A stretch of DNA of 64,000 bases from an uncultured Bacteroidia bacterium. GTDB lineage: Bacteria > Bacteroidota > Bacteroidia > Bacteroidales > UBA932. The number at the start of each line of letters is the position of its first letter. Within the stretch, counting starts at the first letter, position 1. The DNA lies in the NCBI GenBank assembly GCA_902789445.1, contig CADAOB010000022.1, positions 26-64,025 of the forward strand, written 5' to 3'. Under the pieces are notes generated by a model, which made no database searches, was not told the origin of the DNA, and worked only from the letters and a program-made list of their open reading frames with translations. This document shows, one piece after another, positions 1,881 through 30,089 of this stretch. Position numbers and translations under genes: made by a program.

Positions 1881-3344
1881 CTATTTCTTCGGAGCGTCTT
1901 CCAGGACGGCCTGGATGAACTGCCACCATTTGGCGACCGAAGGGATGAAGCAGCGCTCGTCCGGAGAGTGGGGCGACTTGAGGGTCGGGCCGCAGGAGAT
2001 CATGTCCCAGTTCGGATAGGCACCGGCCAGGATGCCGCACTCGAGACCGGCATGGATGGCCATCACGGCGGGTTCTTTGCCGAAGAGCTTCTTGTACTGC
2101 TCCTTCATGGTGTGGAGGATGGGGGAGGCCATATTCGGGCTCCAGCCGGAATAGGCTCCGTCAAACCAGACCTTGGCGCCGGCCAGCTCGAACGCGGCAC
2201 GGACCGACTCGGCCAGGTCCATCTTGAGGGTGTCGGAGGAACCGCGGAGCAGGGTGTTGACGGTAATCACGCCTTTGTCGGTGTGAACGATGGCCAGGTT
2301 GTTGGAGGTCTCCACGAGGCCTTCGACTTCGAGGCTCATGCGGTCCACGGCATTGGGGCAGGCATAGAGGGCTTTGATGAGTTTCAGGCCCGTGTTGCCG
2401 GCGATGACCTTGCTGGCGCGGATGCCTTCGATGGTGATGATCAGGCCCGGATCGATCGGGGCGAGTTCGCCTTTGATGGTCTCGGCCGTTTTCTCGACGA
2501 GCGCCTTCACGGCATCGACTTTCCCGGCGGGGACGGCGACGACGGCCTCGGCTTCACGCGGGATGGCGTTGCGCATGTTGCCGCCGTTGAAGCTGACGAG
2601 TTTGCCCTTGTTGTCGCGCAGGATGGGGAGCAGGAGGCGGGCCATCACCTTGTTGGCGTTGCCGCGGCCTTCGTTGATCTCCATGCCGGAGTGCCCGCCG
2701 CGCAGGCCGGTGACCACGATCTTGCAGGCTTTGTAATCTTTCGGAAGGGCTTCTTCCTTGTATTTGAAACTGATGTTGGCGTCAATGCCGCCGGCGCAGC
2801 CGACGTAGAGTTCGCCTTCGGTCTCGGAGTCGAGGTTGAGCAGGATGTCGCCTTTGAGGATGCCGGGCTTGAGGGCCTTGGCACCGACCATCCGGGTTTC
2901 CTCGTCAACGGTGAAGAGGGCTTCGATGGGGCCGTGCTTGAGGGTCTTGGACTCCAGGACCGACATGGCGGCGGCTACGCCCAGACCGTCGTCGGCACCC
3001 AGGGTCGTGCCGCATGCGTACACCCAGTCGCCGTCTTCCTGGTGGACGATGCGGGTCTCGATCGGATCTTTGGTGAAATCGTGCTTCTTGTCGTTGTTCT
3101 TCTGCGGGACCATGTCCATGTGGGCCTGCAGGATGATGCCCTTGCGGTCTTCCATGCCCGGCGTGGCCGGTTTGCGGATGATGACGTTGCCGCATTCATC
3201 CTGGAAAGCTTCCAGGCCGAGGTCCTTGCCGAATTTGACCAGGAACTTGGCTACTTTCTGCGTGTGTCCGGACGGACGGGGAATCTGGGTGAGCGAGTAG
3301 AAATTGTTCCAGACGCTCTTGGGTTCTAAGTTGCGGATAGGCAT
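1881..3344 (-). CDS. pepD: Aminoacyl-histidine (Xaa-His) dipeptidase, M20 family
   Basis: 487 aa. The protein has PRPSGHTQKVAKFL, ILQAHMDMVPQKN and a PepD-like organisation over its full length. Confidence 0.9.
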   Translation of the reverse strand: MPIRNLEPKSVWNNFYSLTQIPRPSGHTQKVAKFLVKFGKDLGLEAFQDECGNVIIRKPATPGMEDRKGIILQAHMDMVPQKNNDKKHDFTKDPIETRIVHQEDGDWVYACGTTLGADDGLGVAAAMSVLESKTLKHGPIEALFTVDEETRMVGAKALKPGILKGDILLNLDSETEGELYVGCAGGIDANISFKYKEEALPKDYKACKIVVTGLRGGHSGMEINEGRGNANKVMARLLLPILRDNKGKLVSFNGGNMRNAIPREAEAVVAVPAGKVDAVKALVEKTAETIKGELAPIDPGLIITIEGIRASKVIAGNTGLKLIKALYACPNAVDRMSLEVEGLVETSNNLAIVHTDKGVITVNTLLRGSSDTLKMDLAESVRAAFELAGAKVWFDGAYSGWSPNMASPILHTMKEQYKKLFGKEPAVMAIHAGLECGILAGAYPNWDMISCGPTLKSPHSPDERCFIPSVAKWWQFIQAVLEDAPKK

Positions 3345-3362
3345 AATCAGATTGTTTTGAGA

Positions 3363-4397
3363 TTATTTTGTCAGTAATACATTCAGGGGAAGGGTGGCGT
3401 CCTCGCCCAGCTGATAGACGGGGATGCGGTTTTCGAGCAGGAGTTTCCCGCCCTGGACCAGGCGGCAGCGGGTGATGGCCGGGATGCGGTAGCGGACCAC
3501 CGAGGTTTCCTTGCCGCGTTCGCTCGAGACTTCGGGCGCAGCGAGGGGCTCGACCTGGAATTCGAGGGTCACGGCCTGGCCCTCGTTGGCGCCGGCGGGC
3601 AGCAGGCCGCCTTTGTCGGAGAGGCGGAAAGCGGTGTAGCGCTGGTCTTTGCTGCCGGCTTCGGGGGTTACGTCGAAGGTCTTTTCTTCGACGGAGATTT
3701 CGCGGATGCCGTAGAAGAGGCTCAGGTAGCGCTCTTCCAGGCGGGTGATCTCGTCGATGGCGGCCTGGAGGGCCTCGCCGCTGAAGGTGGCGTCGGTGTC
3801 GCCGGTGGCGATCTGCTGCCGTTTCTCGCGGAGACTGAAGATGACTGCGGCGGCGTCGGCGGCCTTGCGGTCGTCGGATTTCTCGACCACGTTGTCCTGC
3901 GTCACCGGCACACGCTCATACCCTTCGTCGGTCTTGACGGCCTTGTAGAGCGTAGTGGTTTCGCTGCCGAGGTTGCCCAGCGGGTCGATGCCCTCGAAAC
4001 TGCGGGAACCGGCTTCGCTGGCGAAGCGCCAGGCGGCCGGCCGGCCGGTGTAGTTGTCGGCCATCACGACCAGGCCCTGGGTGCAGAGCTGCAGGAAGCC
4101 GGCCGACGACTTTTCGGGAATGGCGATGGTGTAGCGGGCTTTCGGATCGGCCTCCACATAGGGCGCGAGCGTGATATTTTGCAGCGTGTAGGAAGTGCCG
4201 CTCTGGGTACGGGCGGCCACGCCGAGGTATTTCTGGGCATATTGGGCATAGGGGCCTGCCGTAAAGGCTTCCCGCCGGGCTTCGACCCGGAGGCAGACCG
4301 TGGTCCGGGGAAGGCTGTACACGACGGCACCGGTCTGAGCGGCTGCATCCTGGAAGAAAAGCAGCAGCAGGGACAGGACAATCAGGGTTCTTTTCAT
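3363..4397 (-). CDS. Secreted hypothetical protein (DUF4831-like)
   Basis: A signal peptide MKRTLIVLSLLLLFFQDAAAQ is present. The motif YSLPRTTVCLRVEARREAFTAGPYAQYAQKYLG resembles the Bacteroidetes DUF4831 family as I recall it. Confidence 0.75.
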   Translation of the reverse strand: MKRTLIVLSLLLLFFQDAAAQTGAVVYSLPRTTVCLRVEARREAFTAGPYAQYAQKYLGVAARTQSGTSYTLQNITLAPYVEADPKARYTIAIPEKSSAGFLQLCTQGLVVMADNYTGRPAAWRFASEAGSRSFEGIDPLGNLGSETTTLYKAVKTDEGYERVPVTQDNVVEKSDDRKAADAAAVIFSLREKRQQIATGDTDATFSGEALQAAIDEITRLEERYLSLFYGIREISVEEKTFDVTPEAGSKDQRYTAFRLSDKGGLLPAGANEGQAVTLEFQVEPLAAPEVSSERGKETSVVRYRIPAITRCRLVQGGKLLLENRIPVYQLGEDATLPLNVLLTK

Positions 4398-9715: not shown

Positions 9716-11929
9716 ATGAAATGTTCCCGATTCCTGGCCGTGCTGTTGCCGGCCGTCCTGTTTCTGACTGCCTGTTCGAGCGAGCCGCGCAGCGAGGCGG
9801 ACGCGTATGTCAATTTCCTCTATGCCTCGATGCCGCATCCTGACCTGGCGGCGCATCCGCTGGACTTCTGGCTGACCAATGTAGAGAAAACACTGGAAGT
9901 CAGGGAAAAAATGAATTGGGACATTCCCGAGCGGGAATTCCGGCACTTTGTGCTGCCGCTGCGGGTCAACAACGAGCCGCTCGACGATTTCCGGACCTTG
10001 TATGCCGATACGCTCTGCGCCCGCGTACAGGGGATGACCCTGGAAGAAGCGGCCTTGGAAATCAACCACTGGTGTCACGAGATGGCGACATATCAACCGT
10101 CGGATGGCCGGACCTCGTCGCCGCTACAGACCATCCGGCGCGGCGTGGGACGCTGCGGTGAGGAATCGGTGCTGGCCGTGGCGGCGCTGCGGGCGGCGGG
10201 CATTCCCGCCCGGCAGGTCTATACGCCGCGCTGGGCCCACACCGACGACAACCACGCCTGGGTGGAGGTCTATGTGGACGGGAAATGGCAATTCATGGGC
10301 GCCTGCGAACCGGAGCCCCGGCTCAATATGGCCTGGTTTACCGGCCCCGTGTCCCGTGCGCTGATCCTGCATACGAAAGTATTCGGTGACTATCACGGCG
10401 ATGAAGACGTTATCCGGCGGACCCCCTGCTATACGGAAATCAATGTCATCTGCGGCTATGTGCCGGCCCGGCGCAGCGTCGTGACGGTCGTGGATGCGGC
10501 CGGCAAGCCGGTGGCCGGGGCCCGTGTGGAGTTCAAGATCTATAATTACGGCGAATACTATACGGTGGCTGCTTACCAGACCGACCGGAACGGTCAGGCT
10601 GCCCTTGACATGGGCTGCGGCGACATGGTGGCCTGGGCTTCAAAGGACGATCGTTTCGGCCTGGCCGTGATCGACGGCGAGGCTGTATCCGTGACGCTCG
10701 GCCACAGGATTGGTGAGGCGTTCAGCCTGGACCTGGACATCGTTCCACCTGCTGAGAACCCGCTGCCCTCCGGCGCGACCGAGGCGGAGGTGGCCCGCAA
10801 CGCGGAGCGGCTCCGCTTCGAAGATGCTTTCCGGGAGGCTCGTCCCAAAGGGAATACGGCCGTGACCGGCGCTTTTCTTGCGGCGCACGATGACCCTGCG
10901 GCGCGGGCGCTCCTTGCCTCGCTTTCCGCCAAGGATACGGGCGACGTGACTGCGGAGGTACTGGAAGATGCTTACGCACATATCGATGGCCCCTTCCGTC
11001 CGCTGCGCGATTGCCCGCGGGTGGAGCTGGAGCCGCTCAAACCCTTCTTCGCGGAACTGGGCGATGCGCTGTCGTTGTCTTCCCGCGAGGAAGTGGCCGC
11101 CTGGGTGGAGAAGAACATCGAGCTGGACACGGAACGCAACCCGCAGGAACTGCGGATGGCGCCCATCGATGTCTGGCGGAGCCGGAAGGCCGATGCCCGG
11201 AACCGGGATATCTTCTTCGTAGCCTTATGCCGGGCCATGGGGCTGGAAGCGGAACTGGATGCACTCACCGGCGGTACACAGCTGGTAGCACAACCCCGGG
11301 GCCGGCTCGCGGTCTCGCTGGAAGGCGGCGGTGATCCGGAGTACTACCATCATTTCACGCTTGCCCGGATTGAAGACGGAACGGCAAAGCTCTTGACTTT
11401 TGACGAAGATTCCGACCACAACCCCTGGACGAAAGTCTTTCCGCTGTCGCTCGACGCGGGTTATTATATGCTGACTTCCGGCACGCGCCTGGCCGACGGC
11501 AGTGTCCTTTCCCACGCGGAATTCTTCCCGGTACCAGCCGACGCTGACACGGAGGTGCCGCTGGTGATGCGCAGCGCGGAAAACCGGATCTCGGTGCTGG
11601 GCACGATGGATGCCGACCGTTTCCTGCCGCAGACCGGCCGCGGCTTCTACCTGCTGGCCGTCCTGGGTGAACGCGACGAGCCGTCGGTCCATGCGAAGCG
11701 GCAATTGGAAGCGCTCGCGCTGGTACTGAAAGAATGGGGCAGGCCGGTGCTGCTTGAAAAAGATGAGGACGGTTCCATCCTGGAGATGCTCTGCGCCGGC
11801 TGCAAGAGCGAATCCCGCCAAAAGCCCGTCGTCACGATCTGCGACAGCTTCGGCCGCATCGTCTATTTCTCCCAGGGTTACAACACCTCGCTGGCCGAAG
11901 ATATCAAACGTATCCTTCCACAGTTATGA
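9716..11929 (+). CDS. Transglutaminase-fold (PNGase-like core) lipoprotein, paralog 2
   Basis: The lipoprotein signal is MKCSRFLAVLLPAVLFLTAC. The core reads GRCGEESVLAVAALRAAGIPAR...NHAWVEVYVDGKWQFMGACEPEP. The protein is colinear with paralog 1 and starts 2 nt after its stop. Confidence 0.88.
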   Translation: MKCSRFLAVLLPAVLFLTACSSEPRSEADAYVNFLYASMPHPDLAAHPLDFWLTNVEKTLEVREKMNWDIPEREFRHFVLPLRVNNEPLDDFRTLYADTLCARVQGMTLEEAALEINHWCHEMATYQPSDGRTSSPLQTIRRGVGRCGEESVLAVAALRAAGIPARQVYTPRWAHTDDNHAWVEVYVDGKWQFMGACEPEPRLNMAWFTGPVSRALILHTKVFGDYHGDEDVIRRTPCYTEINVICGYVPARRSVVTVVDAAGKPVAGARVEFKIYNYGEYYTVAAYQTDRNGQAALDMGCGDMVAWASKDDRFGLAVIDGEAVSVTLGHRIGEAFSLDLDIVPPAENPLPSGATEAEVARNAERLRFEDAFREARPKGNTAVTGAFLAAHDDPAARALLASLSAKDTGDVTAEVLEDAYAHIDGPFRPLRDCPRVELEPLKPFFAELGDALSLSSREEVAAWVEKNIELDTERNPQELRMAPIDVWRSRKADARNRDIFFVALCRAMGLEAELDALTGGTQLVAQPRGRLAVSLEGGGDPEYYHHFTLARIEDGTAKLLTFDEDSDHNPWTKVFPLSLDAGYYMLTSGTRLADGSVLSHAEFFPVPADADTEVPLVMRSAENRISVLGTMDADRFLPQTGRGFYLLAVLGERDEPSVHAKRQLEALALVLKEWGRPVLLEKDEDGSILEMLCAGCKSESRQKPVVTICDSFGRIVYFSQGYNTSLAEDIKRILPQL

Positions 11930-12041
11930 TCGTACCCGGTTTCAGCAACCGCTATCCCAAGGGGGATGACGATTACCTCTGGTCCTACGCCGACTGCAAT
12001 CCCCGTCCGGACGATCCCGTCATTCCCGGCTCCGACCGTGA

Positions 12042-12069
12042 CGTCATGCCCGGCCCCGACCGGGCATCT
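12042..12069 (-). repeat. 27/28-nt REP-like hairpin, inverted copy, with a partial copy at 12018..12038
   Basis: CGTCATGCCCGGCCCCGACCGGGCATCT compares with the reverse complement of the 15349 and 30039 copies, CGTCATTCCCGGCTTGACCGGGAATCT. The stem change T>G is matched by A>C. Confidence 0.7.
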
Positions 12070-12828
12070 CTCCTCCTCGAAACCTGCTGCACCACCCTCG
12101 ACGAAGCCCTCTCGGCCCAGTCCCGCGGCGCCGGCCGCATCGAACTCTGCGCCGACCTTTCCGTCGGCGGCGTGACTCCGCCCCGCGACCTCATCCGCGA
12201 GGTTGTCGCGTCTCTTACGATTCCCGTCAATGTGCTTATACGGCCCGTCGTTCCGGGATGTTCCCTCCCGGGACGTCGCGCTCCGCGCGACCCCTCCCAA
12301 GCGAGCTTGGGCCCCTCCCTCTTACAGTGCCGAGGGTGGCATGGTCCCTGGAGGGAACATCCCGAAACGACGGGAACAGACATCAGAGGGGGGTTTTCAT
12401 TGGCAGACTTCGTGTATGACGAAGCGGCGTTGCAGCAGATGATGGACGATATCGCCTTTTGCAAGTCGGTGGGTGCAGCCGGCATTGTCGTCGGAGCGTT
12501 GACGCCGGAAGGCGCCATCGACCTTCCGGCGATGCGGCGGCTGGTCGCCGCCGCCCGTCCGCTCCCCGTCACCTTCCACCGTGCCTTCGACGTCAGTACC
12601 AGCGATCCCTTCACGGCCCTCGACGAGATTGCCGCCCTCGGCTGCGCCCGGCTGCTCAGTTCCGGCCGGAAACCGACGGCCTGGGAAGGCCGCGACCTGC
12701 TCGCTGCGATGGTCGGCCGGGTTCCGTCGCTTGTCATTATGCCCGGAAGCGGAATAACGGCCGCCAATCTTTCCGATCTGGCGGCCGTTACAAAGGCCCG
12801 TGAATTCCACGGGACACGGATTCCTTAA
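12046..12828 (+). CDS. cutC: CutC family protein carrying an extra segment of about 46-50 aa
   Basis: LLLETCCTTLDEALSAQSRGAGRIELCADLSVGGVTP...IPVNVLIRP then an insert, then RGG(FSLA)DFVYDE...VTFHRAFD. The CutC pattern IRPRGGDF is split by the insert. The start at ATG 12046 is chosen from the normal CutC N-terminal length, and the track start at 11926 is probably too early. Confidence 0.8.
   Translation: MPGPDRASLLLETCCTTLDEALSAQSRGAGRIELCADLSVGGVTPPRDLIREVVASLTIPVNVLIRPVVPGCSLPGRRAPRDPSQASLGPSLLQCRGWHGPWREHPETTGTDIRGGFSLADFVYDEAALQQMMDDIAFCKSVGAAGIVVGALTPEGAIDLPAMRRLVAAARPLPVTFHRAFDVSTSDPFTALDEIAALGCARLLSSGRKPTAWEGRDLLAAMVGRVPSLVIMPGSGITAANLSDLAAVTKAREFHGTRIP
12246..12372. mobile_element. 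127-bp palindromic insertion inside the cutC reading frame
   Basis: The arms are CGTCGTTCCGGGATGTTCCCTCC (12246-12268) and GGAGGGAACATCCCGAAACGACG (12350-12372), matching at 22 of 23 positions and extendable to about 29 bp with mismatches. The 81-nt core contains hairpins GTCGCGC-tcc-GCGCGAC and CCCAAGC-ga-GCTTGGG. Confidence 0.7.
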
Positions 12829-15348: not shown

Positions 15349-15375
15349 AGATTCCCGGTCAAGCCGGGAATGACG
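15349..15375 (+). repeat. 27-nt REP-like hairpin
   Basis: AGATTCCCGGTCAAGCCGGGAATGACG lies 7 nt downstream of the atpG stop. It matches the copy at 30039 at 26 of 27 positions. Confidence 0.75.
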
Positions 15376-15381
15376 CGGGGC

Positions 15382-28017: not shown

Positions 28018-28136
28018 TTTGCGCTGCAACGGACACAGCTGGTAATCAGGTGTTTATAGAAAGTGACCCCCTCAAAAAACGAGGGGGTCACTTTTCGTAA
28101 GTCGCTGATTGACTGATGTGTCCGTTGCAGCGCAAA
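28018..28136. repeat. Copy B of the roughly 120-bp palindromic MITE-like element (best preserved)
   Basis: The 20-bp terminal inverted repeats TTTGCGCTGCAACGGACACA / TGTGTCCGTTGCAGCGCAAA are perfect. The central hairpin is GTGACCCCCTC-AAAAAAC-GAGGGGGTCAC. It lies between convergent genes. Confidence 0.85.
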
Positions 28137-30038: not shown

Positions 30039-30065
30039 AGATTCCCGGCCAAGCCGGGAATGACG
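30039..30065 (+). repeat. 27-nt REP-like hairpin
   Basis: AGATTCCCGGCCAAGCCGGGAATGACG lies just downstream of the predicted -7 box, so probably in the dcp 5' leader. Confidence 0.75.
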
Positions 30066-30089
30066 AATATAAACCCACAATACCGTTAT

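Follow-up and report, generated by a model that had tools for sequence, protein, structure and literature searches.

The cutC locus

The window analyzed here is a 64,000-nt stretch of contig CADAOB010000022.1 from an uncultured Bacteroidia bacterium, with the same sequence as ENA ERZ28613037 scaffold_349 from a cattle-rumen metagenome assembly. Its forward strand, on which all cutC features below are given, contains a 300-amino-acid cutC open reading frame (ORF) at 11926–12828, identified from the ORF list and a Pfam match (PF03932, 3.5e-53), with a product identical to the CutC protein P0131. The domain match was split into two stretches, and the gene contains an in-frame palindromic insert that belongs to a dispersed repeat family in uncultured Bacteroidales.

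The repeat search placed the inverted arms at 12244–12274 and 12344–12374 (31 nt each, 94% complementary with 29/31 paired) around a 69-nt spacer, for a palindrome of 131 bp in total with 69% GC. An earlier reading of the sequence alone (the original prediction) had described 23-nt arms at 12246–12268 and 12350–12372 enclosing 81 nt. These were the inner, nearly perfect part of the 31-nt arms, and the palindrome had the sequence and coordinates it described. The outer 11 nt of the left arm are CCCGTCGTTCC, and its inner ~19 nt correspond in family alignments to a loosely conserved arm of the repeat family. The palindrome was confirmed as real and far beyond chance: a 25-nt arm pattern with ≤3 mismatches matched just the two arm sites in the 64 kb (0.00 expected from shuffles), and the folding energy of 12236–12382 was −90 kcal/mol versus −56.5 ± 4.4 for shuffles (z = −7.55; 0/200 shuffles equal).

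As a single strand, the insert folded into a long closing stem around three hairpins. The first two, H1 (12275–12291, GTCGCGC-TCC-GCGCGAC) and H2 (12296–12311, CCCAAGC-GA-GCTTGGG), were already in the original prediction. The third spanned ~12317–12343 in the fold, with the H3 stem CAGTGCC/GGCATG and loop GAGGGT at 12325–12343. C-rich blocks surround the top of H2 (12292–12321; CCCTCCCA, then AGC-GA-GCT, then TGGGCCCCTCCCTC) and occupied invariant alignment columns. A further pairing within 12317–12336 joins CCCTC (12317–12321) to GAGGG (12332–12336).

In the protein, the order of segments was IRP, then 46 residues (VVPGCS...TGTDI), then RGGFSLA, then DFVYDE; the 46 extra in-frame residues before RGG were as originally described, and insert-derived peptides include DPSQASLGPSLLQCR. 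Judged by the flanking motifs PVNVLIR and DFVY, the whole variable insert is 162 nt or 54 codons (12244–12405). Human CutC (3IWP) aligned to IRP at residue 98 and picked up again at GDF at residue 101, so that 52 window residues stood against 2 in 3IWP. AlphaFold2 gave the barrel a predicted local distance difference test (pLDDT) score >90 and residues 75–115, within the insert, a score <50. The insert is accordingly modelled as a disordered loop, predicted to follow beta-strand 3 of the CutC triose-phosphate isomerase (TIM) barrel. Five of the six reading frames of the element were open, and in silico inversion of the spacer, as had been proposed, or of the whole element kept the cutC frame open.

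A dispersed family in uncultured Bacteroidales

With one genome taken for each species, a search of species-representative genomes for the pattern CCCTCCCA-N6-24-TGGGCCCCTCCCYC matched at least 120 loci. Among the matches listed, 28 loci were in Bacteroidales metagenome-assembled genomes (MAGs) from rumen, yak, goat, horse, and human gut, one of them labelled Rikenellaceae; by tblastn, none of the 28 was the cutC locus. A covariance model (R1; 110 positions, 38 pairs) built from 29 copies yielded 40 copies of 46–117 bits at ~30 different loci in related uncultured Bacteroidales, including copies that the pattern had missed. Run with filters off, R1 delimited the element proper at 12256–12363 in the window (114.6 bits, E = 4e-29), and neither R1 nor patterns for the arms and the core that allowed 3 mismatches found another copy in the 64 kb. 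The original prediction had proposed a repeat like the Rickettsia palindromic elements (RPEs) and had looked to further copies as a check. Both held up, with 40 copies at ~30 loci (one in the 64-kb window), many in frame in unrelated housekeeping genes, and an empty-site orthologue.

About half of the copies were intergenic and the remainder were in frame within genes confirmed by Pfam. Hosts of in-frame copies (loci in brackets) were the YgiQ radical SAM protein (L013, L117), RibF, where three species share the site (L032, L038, L084), UvrA (L033), RNase R (rnr, RNB domain; L073), an ABC transporter (L074), an FAD-dependent protein (L080), TruB (L094), and FolC (L067). Gene-borne copies occurred in both orientations, and the core was read in two reverse frames and in three forward frames, giving peptides with ...DPSQASLGPSLLQCRGWH..., ...GPLPLTVPRVA..., and ...WAPPSY.AEGG.... 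Since five reading frames were used and no peptide was conserved, we regard the protein segment as a passenger.

Two loci had copies head to head and 40–50 nt apart (L085:1893–2148 and L080:3006–3261). The pair in L080 was contained within one FAD-dependent protein gene and recalls the head-to-head dimers of repetitive extragenic palindromic (REP) sequences. Beside the element copy in the Rikenellaceae folC gene (L067 ~3180–3500) were in-frame tandem repeats of about five HIGHENAAFCAQTSLQT units, situated between the Mur ligase M and C domains.

A direct target-site duplication was absent from the flanks of 37 copies, which extended the palindrome instead. The original suggestion of a MITE (miniature inverted-repeat transposable element) fits in the terminal inverted repeats, the length <300 bp, and the lack of coding capacity of its own, but not in the target site. 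Rfam at the gathering threshold found only tRNAs in the window; at E up to 10 it returned only far sub-threshold microRNA hairpin families for 12150–12470, and it returned nothing for nine related loci. A full-text literature search found no paper with the core motif and no description of the Bacteroidales family, which is apparently undescribed so far.

Within a single MAG, several copies may share an identical core and differ in the outer stem (L073 and L080; L024 and L033). Two chimeric contigs involved the cutC locus: in one, another element copy was joined to the cutC right arm (L133:1–193), and in the other (L140:3380–3428) the end folded back via a 13-nt inverted repeat from the core (window 12329–12341) to the sequence downstream in cutC (12630–12642). 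Six contigs (L134–L139) began inside the core. With such joins and starts, the element disturbs metagenome assembly. Together, the identical cores per MAG, the chimeric L133, and the contigs starting in the core point to a multi-copy, actively homogenised repeat.

Covariation and structural constraint

Pairing in the 40-copy alignment was well above that of shuffled alignments (89.7% of cells paired vs 66.4%; covariation score 0.558 vs 0.146), with 35/43 pairs changed on both sides. When partners were slid by 1–3 columns, pairing fell to 38–46%. Covariation was found at all 19/19 pairs of the closing stem, at three pairs of the upper H2 stem, and in the H3 stem; changes on both sides were seen at 4/5 pairs of H1 and 5/5 pairs of H3. 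Because the alignment was fitted to R1 and the arms of a palindrome covary trivially, the informative results are those for H2, H3, and the CCCTC:GAGGG pairing. The latter was paired in 99% of cells and had the compensatory variants CCCCC:GGGGG, CCCGC:GCGGG, and CCCGT:ACGGG. As GAGGG doubles as the loop of H3, this pairing represents either a pseudoknot or an alternative fold.

G.U pairs made up 26/198 of the non-Watson-Crick cells, about the chance level and with no enrichment. This lack of G.U use, combined with the use of both orientations, suggests that what is constrained is the DNA, or both strands, and not an RNA of one polarity. The ~70-nt core was nearly invariant and the terminal repeats were only ~60–70% conserved; the sequence of the closing stem drifted across the family with pairing retained.

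Orthologous alleles and the history of the cutC site

We aligned the window CutC with 25 homologues from uncultured Bacteroidales (58–95% identity), a check that the original prediction had named. An insert of variable length, up to ~55 residues, was at exactly the same site in 25/26 proteins, and P0098 had an empty site with no insert. No peptide was conserved among the inserts. The CutC motif of this clade was IRP...GFSxxDF, and close relatives read RWG, SLG, GG, and so on at the position of the window RGG. The insert thus follows IRP as originally placed, but RGG belongs to a variable stretch and is not the leftover half of a canonical RGGDF.

At the DNA level, twelve loci provided nine cutC allele types. 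In eight of the nine, the 159–180-nt insert folded as a long stem with a conserved core, arranged as H1, CCCCTCCCA, H2, TGGGCCCCTCCCTC, TTA, and H3 with the loop GAGGGT. The ninth (L011) had a small REP hairpin only. The core was forward in the window, L002, L006, L007, and L010, and reversed in L001, L003–5, L008, and L009. The 159-nt insert of L008 matched those of L007 and L010 at 78% identity when reverse-complemented versus 61–64% in the same orientation, which indicates that the whole element was inverted in place between species.

Both orientations also occurred within one species. Over 19.5 kb, L171 and the window shared 99.985% identity, and L002 and L003 were 95–97% identical to the window, which makes them one species by the usual average nucleotide identity cut-off. 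L002 and L003 differed in their cutC allele. Type A had the forward core and arms as in the window; type B had a reversed core that was 94% identical, other arms, and ~45 nt of linked upstream differences. Since the alleles differ in the arms and the ~45-nt upstream flank as well, we interpret the change as allele replacement. Both alleles were common (cluster sizes of 23 + 7 members for type A and 28 + 14 for type B). One 141-aa protein, P0142, from 944-bp contigs, combined the type A left arm and forward core with FGSHCHPNA, a peptide from the right arm of type B. Either such an allele truly arose by recombination, or the assembly joined A and B across the core that they share.

Like cutC, ribF and ygiQ each had both orientations at one site. 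Among ygiQ homologues we found no clean empty sites, only remnant-bearing ones: P0175 retained a reversed remnant, and P0213 and P0191 resembled deletion footprints. The opposite orientations at the cutC, ribF, and ygiQ sites indicate flipping over evolutionary time, most simply, as far as the sequences suggest, by recombination or template switching between the arms. By this comparison, the cutC site remained occupied through the clade and the insert was inverted whole in place. Recombination also replaced the insert, leaving two old alleles in the species with opposite core orientations.

Small REPs, core relatives, and other repeats

A CGTC-type REP pattern had 3 matches in the window versus 0.11 expected. 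The variable N-terminal stretch of cutC contains, in frame, two small CGTC-type REP units at 12018–12067 (CGTCATTCCCGG... and CGTCATGCCCGG-CCCCGA-CCGGGCAT), and strains differed there by a 24-nt indel that results in proteins of 292 versus 300 aa. We consider this stretch a second repeat-colonised site in the gene. The N-termini of orthologues were hypervariable between the VPGFxxRYPK start and the CutC domain, with REP-derived peptides such as VMPGPDRAS and RHARLDRAS. Two small intergenic REPs (GATTCCCGG-loop-CCGGGAATGACG) at 15351–15376 and 30040–30066 had the CGTC tag, an 8-bp stem starting from AT, and a 5-nt loop; the tag was also present in the small REP at 12042.

The 131-bp element has a CGTC at 12246–12249 that pairs with the GACG of the right arm. 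Its outermost arms, CGTC-GTTCCGGG ... CCCGAAAC-GACG, look like a degenerate CGTC REP that may have been split by the 103-nt inner element.

Outside Bacteroidales, many copies of the core motif occurred in GC-rich phage contigs and in Alphaproteobacteria (Caulobacter, Sphingomonas, Azospirillum, Rhodospirillales). A long closing stem was missing from the alphaproteobacterial core. The last hairpin of that core, CCCTCTCCC-loop-GGGAGAGGG with a T-run behind it, makes up the first two-thirds of the boxC/TM_ECO triplex motif (PMC4666352). The scan pattern itself selected for the 22 nt shared between Bacteroidales and Alphaproteobacteria; the GAGGG partner and the preceding hairpin are shared even though they are outside the pattern, which argues for a real relationship, by descent or by convergence. 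The phage carriage of the Bacteroidales type was rejected, as 25/25 viral matches were of the alphaproteobacterial type. Several GC-rich IMG/VR phage contigs (L152, L157, L150, L159) had up to 4 exact-pattern core copies per contig and up to 8 CCCTCNCCC-loop-GGGNGAGGG hairpins, each with a T-run behind it shortly before the following gene begins, in the manner of a modular terminator.

The second-best R1 match in the window (28018–28135, 21 bits) was rejected as a family copy. It is an unrelated, imperfect palindrome of ~118 nt, GCTGCAACGGACACA...TGTGTCCGTTGCAGC, with a G + C-rich hairpin and then a T-run at its centre (GTGACCCCCTC-AAAAAAC-GAGGGGGTCAC-TTTT), and looks like a bidirectional terminator within a longer inverted repeat.

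Interpretation and proposed mechanism

We conclude that the cutC palindrome is probably a non-autonomous selfish repeat, similar to REPs and RPEs and belonging to a ~110–150-bp family in uncultured rumen and hindgut Bacteroidales. Its architecture is a long closing stem that encloses a ~70-nt core of three hairpins and C-rich linkers, and the copy in cutC appears to be nested between the stem halves of a degenerate CGTC-type REP. Because the length of the element is a multiple of three and the frame used is stop-free, the gene stays open. Expression of the gene would then carry the insert through transcription and translation, giving a disordered passenger loop of ~46–52 residues that cells tolerate, and gene-breaking insertions would presumably be purged by selection. 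Spread and maintenance may act on the folded single-stranded DNA form, recognised by a trans-acting enzyme or through replication template switching. Such recognition would fit the Watson-Crick-only pairing, which is kept in either orientation.

Several observations weigh against this interpretation. Translation of the insert is deduced from intact frames, in a sample biased by a protein search that returns intact genes. The 64 kb contain a single copy. We found no target-site duplication in the flanks and no empty/filled pair that marks the insertion boundaries, and no transposase was linked to the family, in an analysis that had no search for one with matching ends and that listed the ORFs between the copy pairs in L100 and L102 without annotation. 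Conservation of the core above the arms, stems that are still complementary in orthologous copies diverged by 25–35%, and a core motif common to Alphaproteobacteria are all unexpected of purely decaying junk DNA and leave room for a function at the level of the host or of the element.

A bolder version, which we think unlikely on balance, is that the ~70-nt core is itself a self-contained module specified by structure (H1–H3, the C-rich linkers, and the CCCTC:GAGGG pseudoknot or triplex) and common to Bacteroidales and Alphaproteobacteria. Such a mobile element would insert in the loops of palindromes or build the arms itself, without terminal-repeat recognition or target duplication, and would flip in place. 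If this were true, housekeeping proteins in natural populations would bear interchangeable, recoded loops.

In-frame selfish palindromes have until now been mainly a Rickettsia curiosity together with scattered intragenic REPs, and the field has yet to explain how CGTC-type repeats spread without a transposase. The family described here extends such palindromes to abundant gut and rumen Bacteroidales and offers, at one codon in cutC, ribF, and ygiQ, dozens of naturally occurring states (filled, flipped, or deleted). The nearly invariant core, the covarying stems, and the cross-phylum motif make the recognition structure testable. In practical terms, these elements break metagenome contigs, create chimeric joins, and inflate the apparent protein diversity of conserved enzymes.

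Alternative explanations

Among the rival explanations, the one that survives best, at a quite low probability, is that the core (as a pseudoknot or intrastrand triplex) is a domesticated structured module kept for a host function, with possible roles in stabilising mRNA, in pausing translation, or as a DNA structure that influences replication or recombination. In its favor are the conserved core with covariation in all helices and the complementarity retained at orthologous sites although the arms have diverged. The core is also similar to G/C-rich triplex motifs for which a link to genome instability has been drawn (PMC4666352). Alphaproteobacteria and their phages again have the arrangement CCCTCCCA-hairpin-TGGGCCCCTCCCTC...GAGGG, there with a last hairpin and T-run that are terminator-like. 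However, copies were in both orientations to transcription and were intergenic or in unrelated genes in any frame. The pairing was Watson-Crick-only, with G.U unused, no Rfam family matched, and the cores of one genome were homogenised, as is typical when a repeat spreads.

The original prediction had also raised an intragenic inverton, in which a recombinase would flip the 69–81-nt core within a population and recode 23–27 CutC residues as phase variation. Opposite orientations did occur at cutC, ribF, and ygiQ over evolution, both within a species and between species at one site, and the long, nearly perfect inverted repeats, the frame that is open in either orientation, and the contigs that often end inside the core, as at invertible regions, are all consistent with inversion. 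The contig breaks are explained equally well by a multi-copy repeat and co-occurring alleles, however, and the flipped core with the same arms was absent from 5.8 billion proteins, from the relevant cluster members, and from JGI metagenomes. Specifically, the protein of the flipped allele had no better match than that of the forward allele among the 5.8 billion, its best match (87%) being the forward allele itself. The listed members of four clusters were all type A or B except for the 141-aa fragment of a 944-bp contig with an A start and a B arm, and the arm-pattern scan of JGI metagenomes returned one true match, which was forward, and four chance matches. The A and B alleles differ in arms and in ~45 nt of upstream flank, no recombinase Pfam domain was present in the 20 kb around cutC (within 10 kb on either side), and the peptide that would be recoded is in a predicted disordered loop, with five frames used to read the same core elsewhere. 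These data do not support an active inverton, which we consider highly improbable.

Two readings were discarded. Self-splicing of RNA and translational bypassing were rejected because the element occurs in both orientations to its host genes and always in frame. An ordinary lineage-specific loop with a chance palindrome in its DNA, or an artefact of assembly, could draw on the high GC, which favors stop-free frames (at least 5/6 open has a chance of ~5% by a rough estimate), and on the chimeric contigs L133 and L140 at the cutC locus, but has almost no probability left: with a palindrome far beyond chance and loop peptides that are not conserved where the DNA fold is, it is refuted by the same DNA element at ~30 other loci and by (near-)identical sequence in the independent assemblies L171, L172, L142, and L002.

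Comparison with known repeat systems

The palindrome in cutC shares features with several known systems. Like the intragenic invertons of Chanin et al. (PMC10028968), it has inverted repeats within coding sequence, stop-free recoding, and a Bacteroidales host. Invertons show both orientations in the reads of one isolate, with an invertase presumed, whereas flips here are between alleles or species, and the element is a dispersed repeat and not a locus-specific switch. MITEs such as Correia, ERIC, and Nezha are likewise small, non-coding, dispersed, and bounded by terminal inverted repeats, and fold as long hairpins. They differ in that our element has no target-site duplication, with flanks that extend the palindrome, is conserved in its core rather than in its terminal repeats, and has no known parent insertion sequence. 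REPIN/RAYT and IS200/IS605-derived systems are alike in their long hairpin doublets, and recognition of our element would similarly rest on folded single-stranded DNA hairpins; in contrast to them, it is without a GTAG tag or a linked RAYT/TnpA, and its arms are not the conserved part.

The boxC/TM_ECO triplex motif (Holder et al. 2015, PMC4666352) has the same type of CCCTC/GAGGG blocks, is dispersed, and is without mobility genes, and the alphaproteobacterial relatives of our core contain its hairpin CCCTCNCCC-N3-6-GGGNGAGGG. The full pattern CCCTCNCCC N3-6 GGGNGAGGG N3 GGGNGAGGG had 0 matches in the window. The Bacteroidales loci did not have the hairpin half, nor, by inspection, did the window element; this half was frequent only in alphaproteobacterial and phage loci.

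CGTC-tagged REPs are found mainly in Alphaproteobacteria and also in Bacteroidetes, frequently lie within genes (uvrA and truB among them), and have no dedicated transposase; some are nested in longer palindromes, and head-to-head dimers are frequent (Di Nocera et al. 2013, PMC3733652). The window's small REPs (CGTC + ATTCCCGG + 5–6-nt loop + CCGGGAAT) fit the description of a tag, an 8-bp stem starting with AT, and a 4–5-nt loop. The element proper differs in size, stem, and tail. At 108 nt it is about four times the length of a REP and has four helices and a multi-hairpin core, its outer stem begins with GT, the CGTC bases of H1 are paired, and there is no CCA tail, which sets it apart from a 20–40-bp repeat with an 8–9-bp stem and CCA.

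The closest resemblance is to CGTC REPs and to RPEs, of which RPE-4 and RPE-6 belong to the CGTC REP class (PMC3733652). RPEs too are dispersed palindromes of ~100–150 bp that are in frame in many housekeeping genes left open (PMC3733652), with 30–50 extra loop residues, hosts that include uvrA/uvrB-type repair genes and truB, and no known transposase. The differences are in host, AT-rich Rickettsia versus GC-rich Bacteroidales of another phylum, and in structure, since the most conserved part here is the three-hairpin core with its possible pseudoknot and not the ends, and both orientations occur at orthologous sites. The likeness to RPEs is offered as functional analogy rather than membership. 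Taken together, the cutC palindrome is best described as structured, selfish palindromic DNA of the REP/RPE kind that is resident in frame in cutC.

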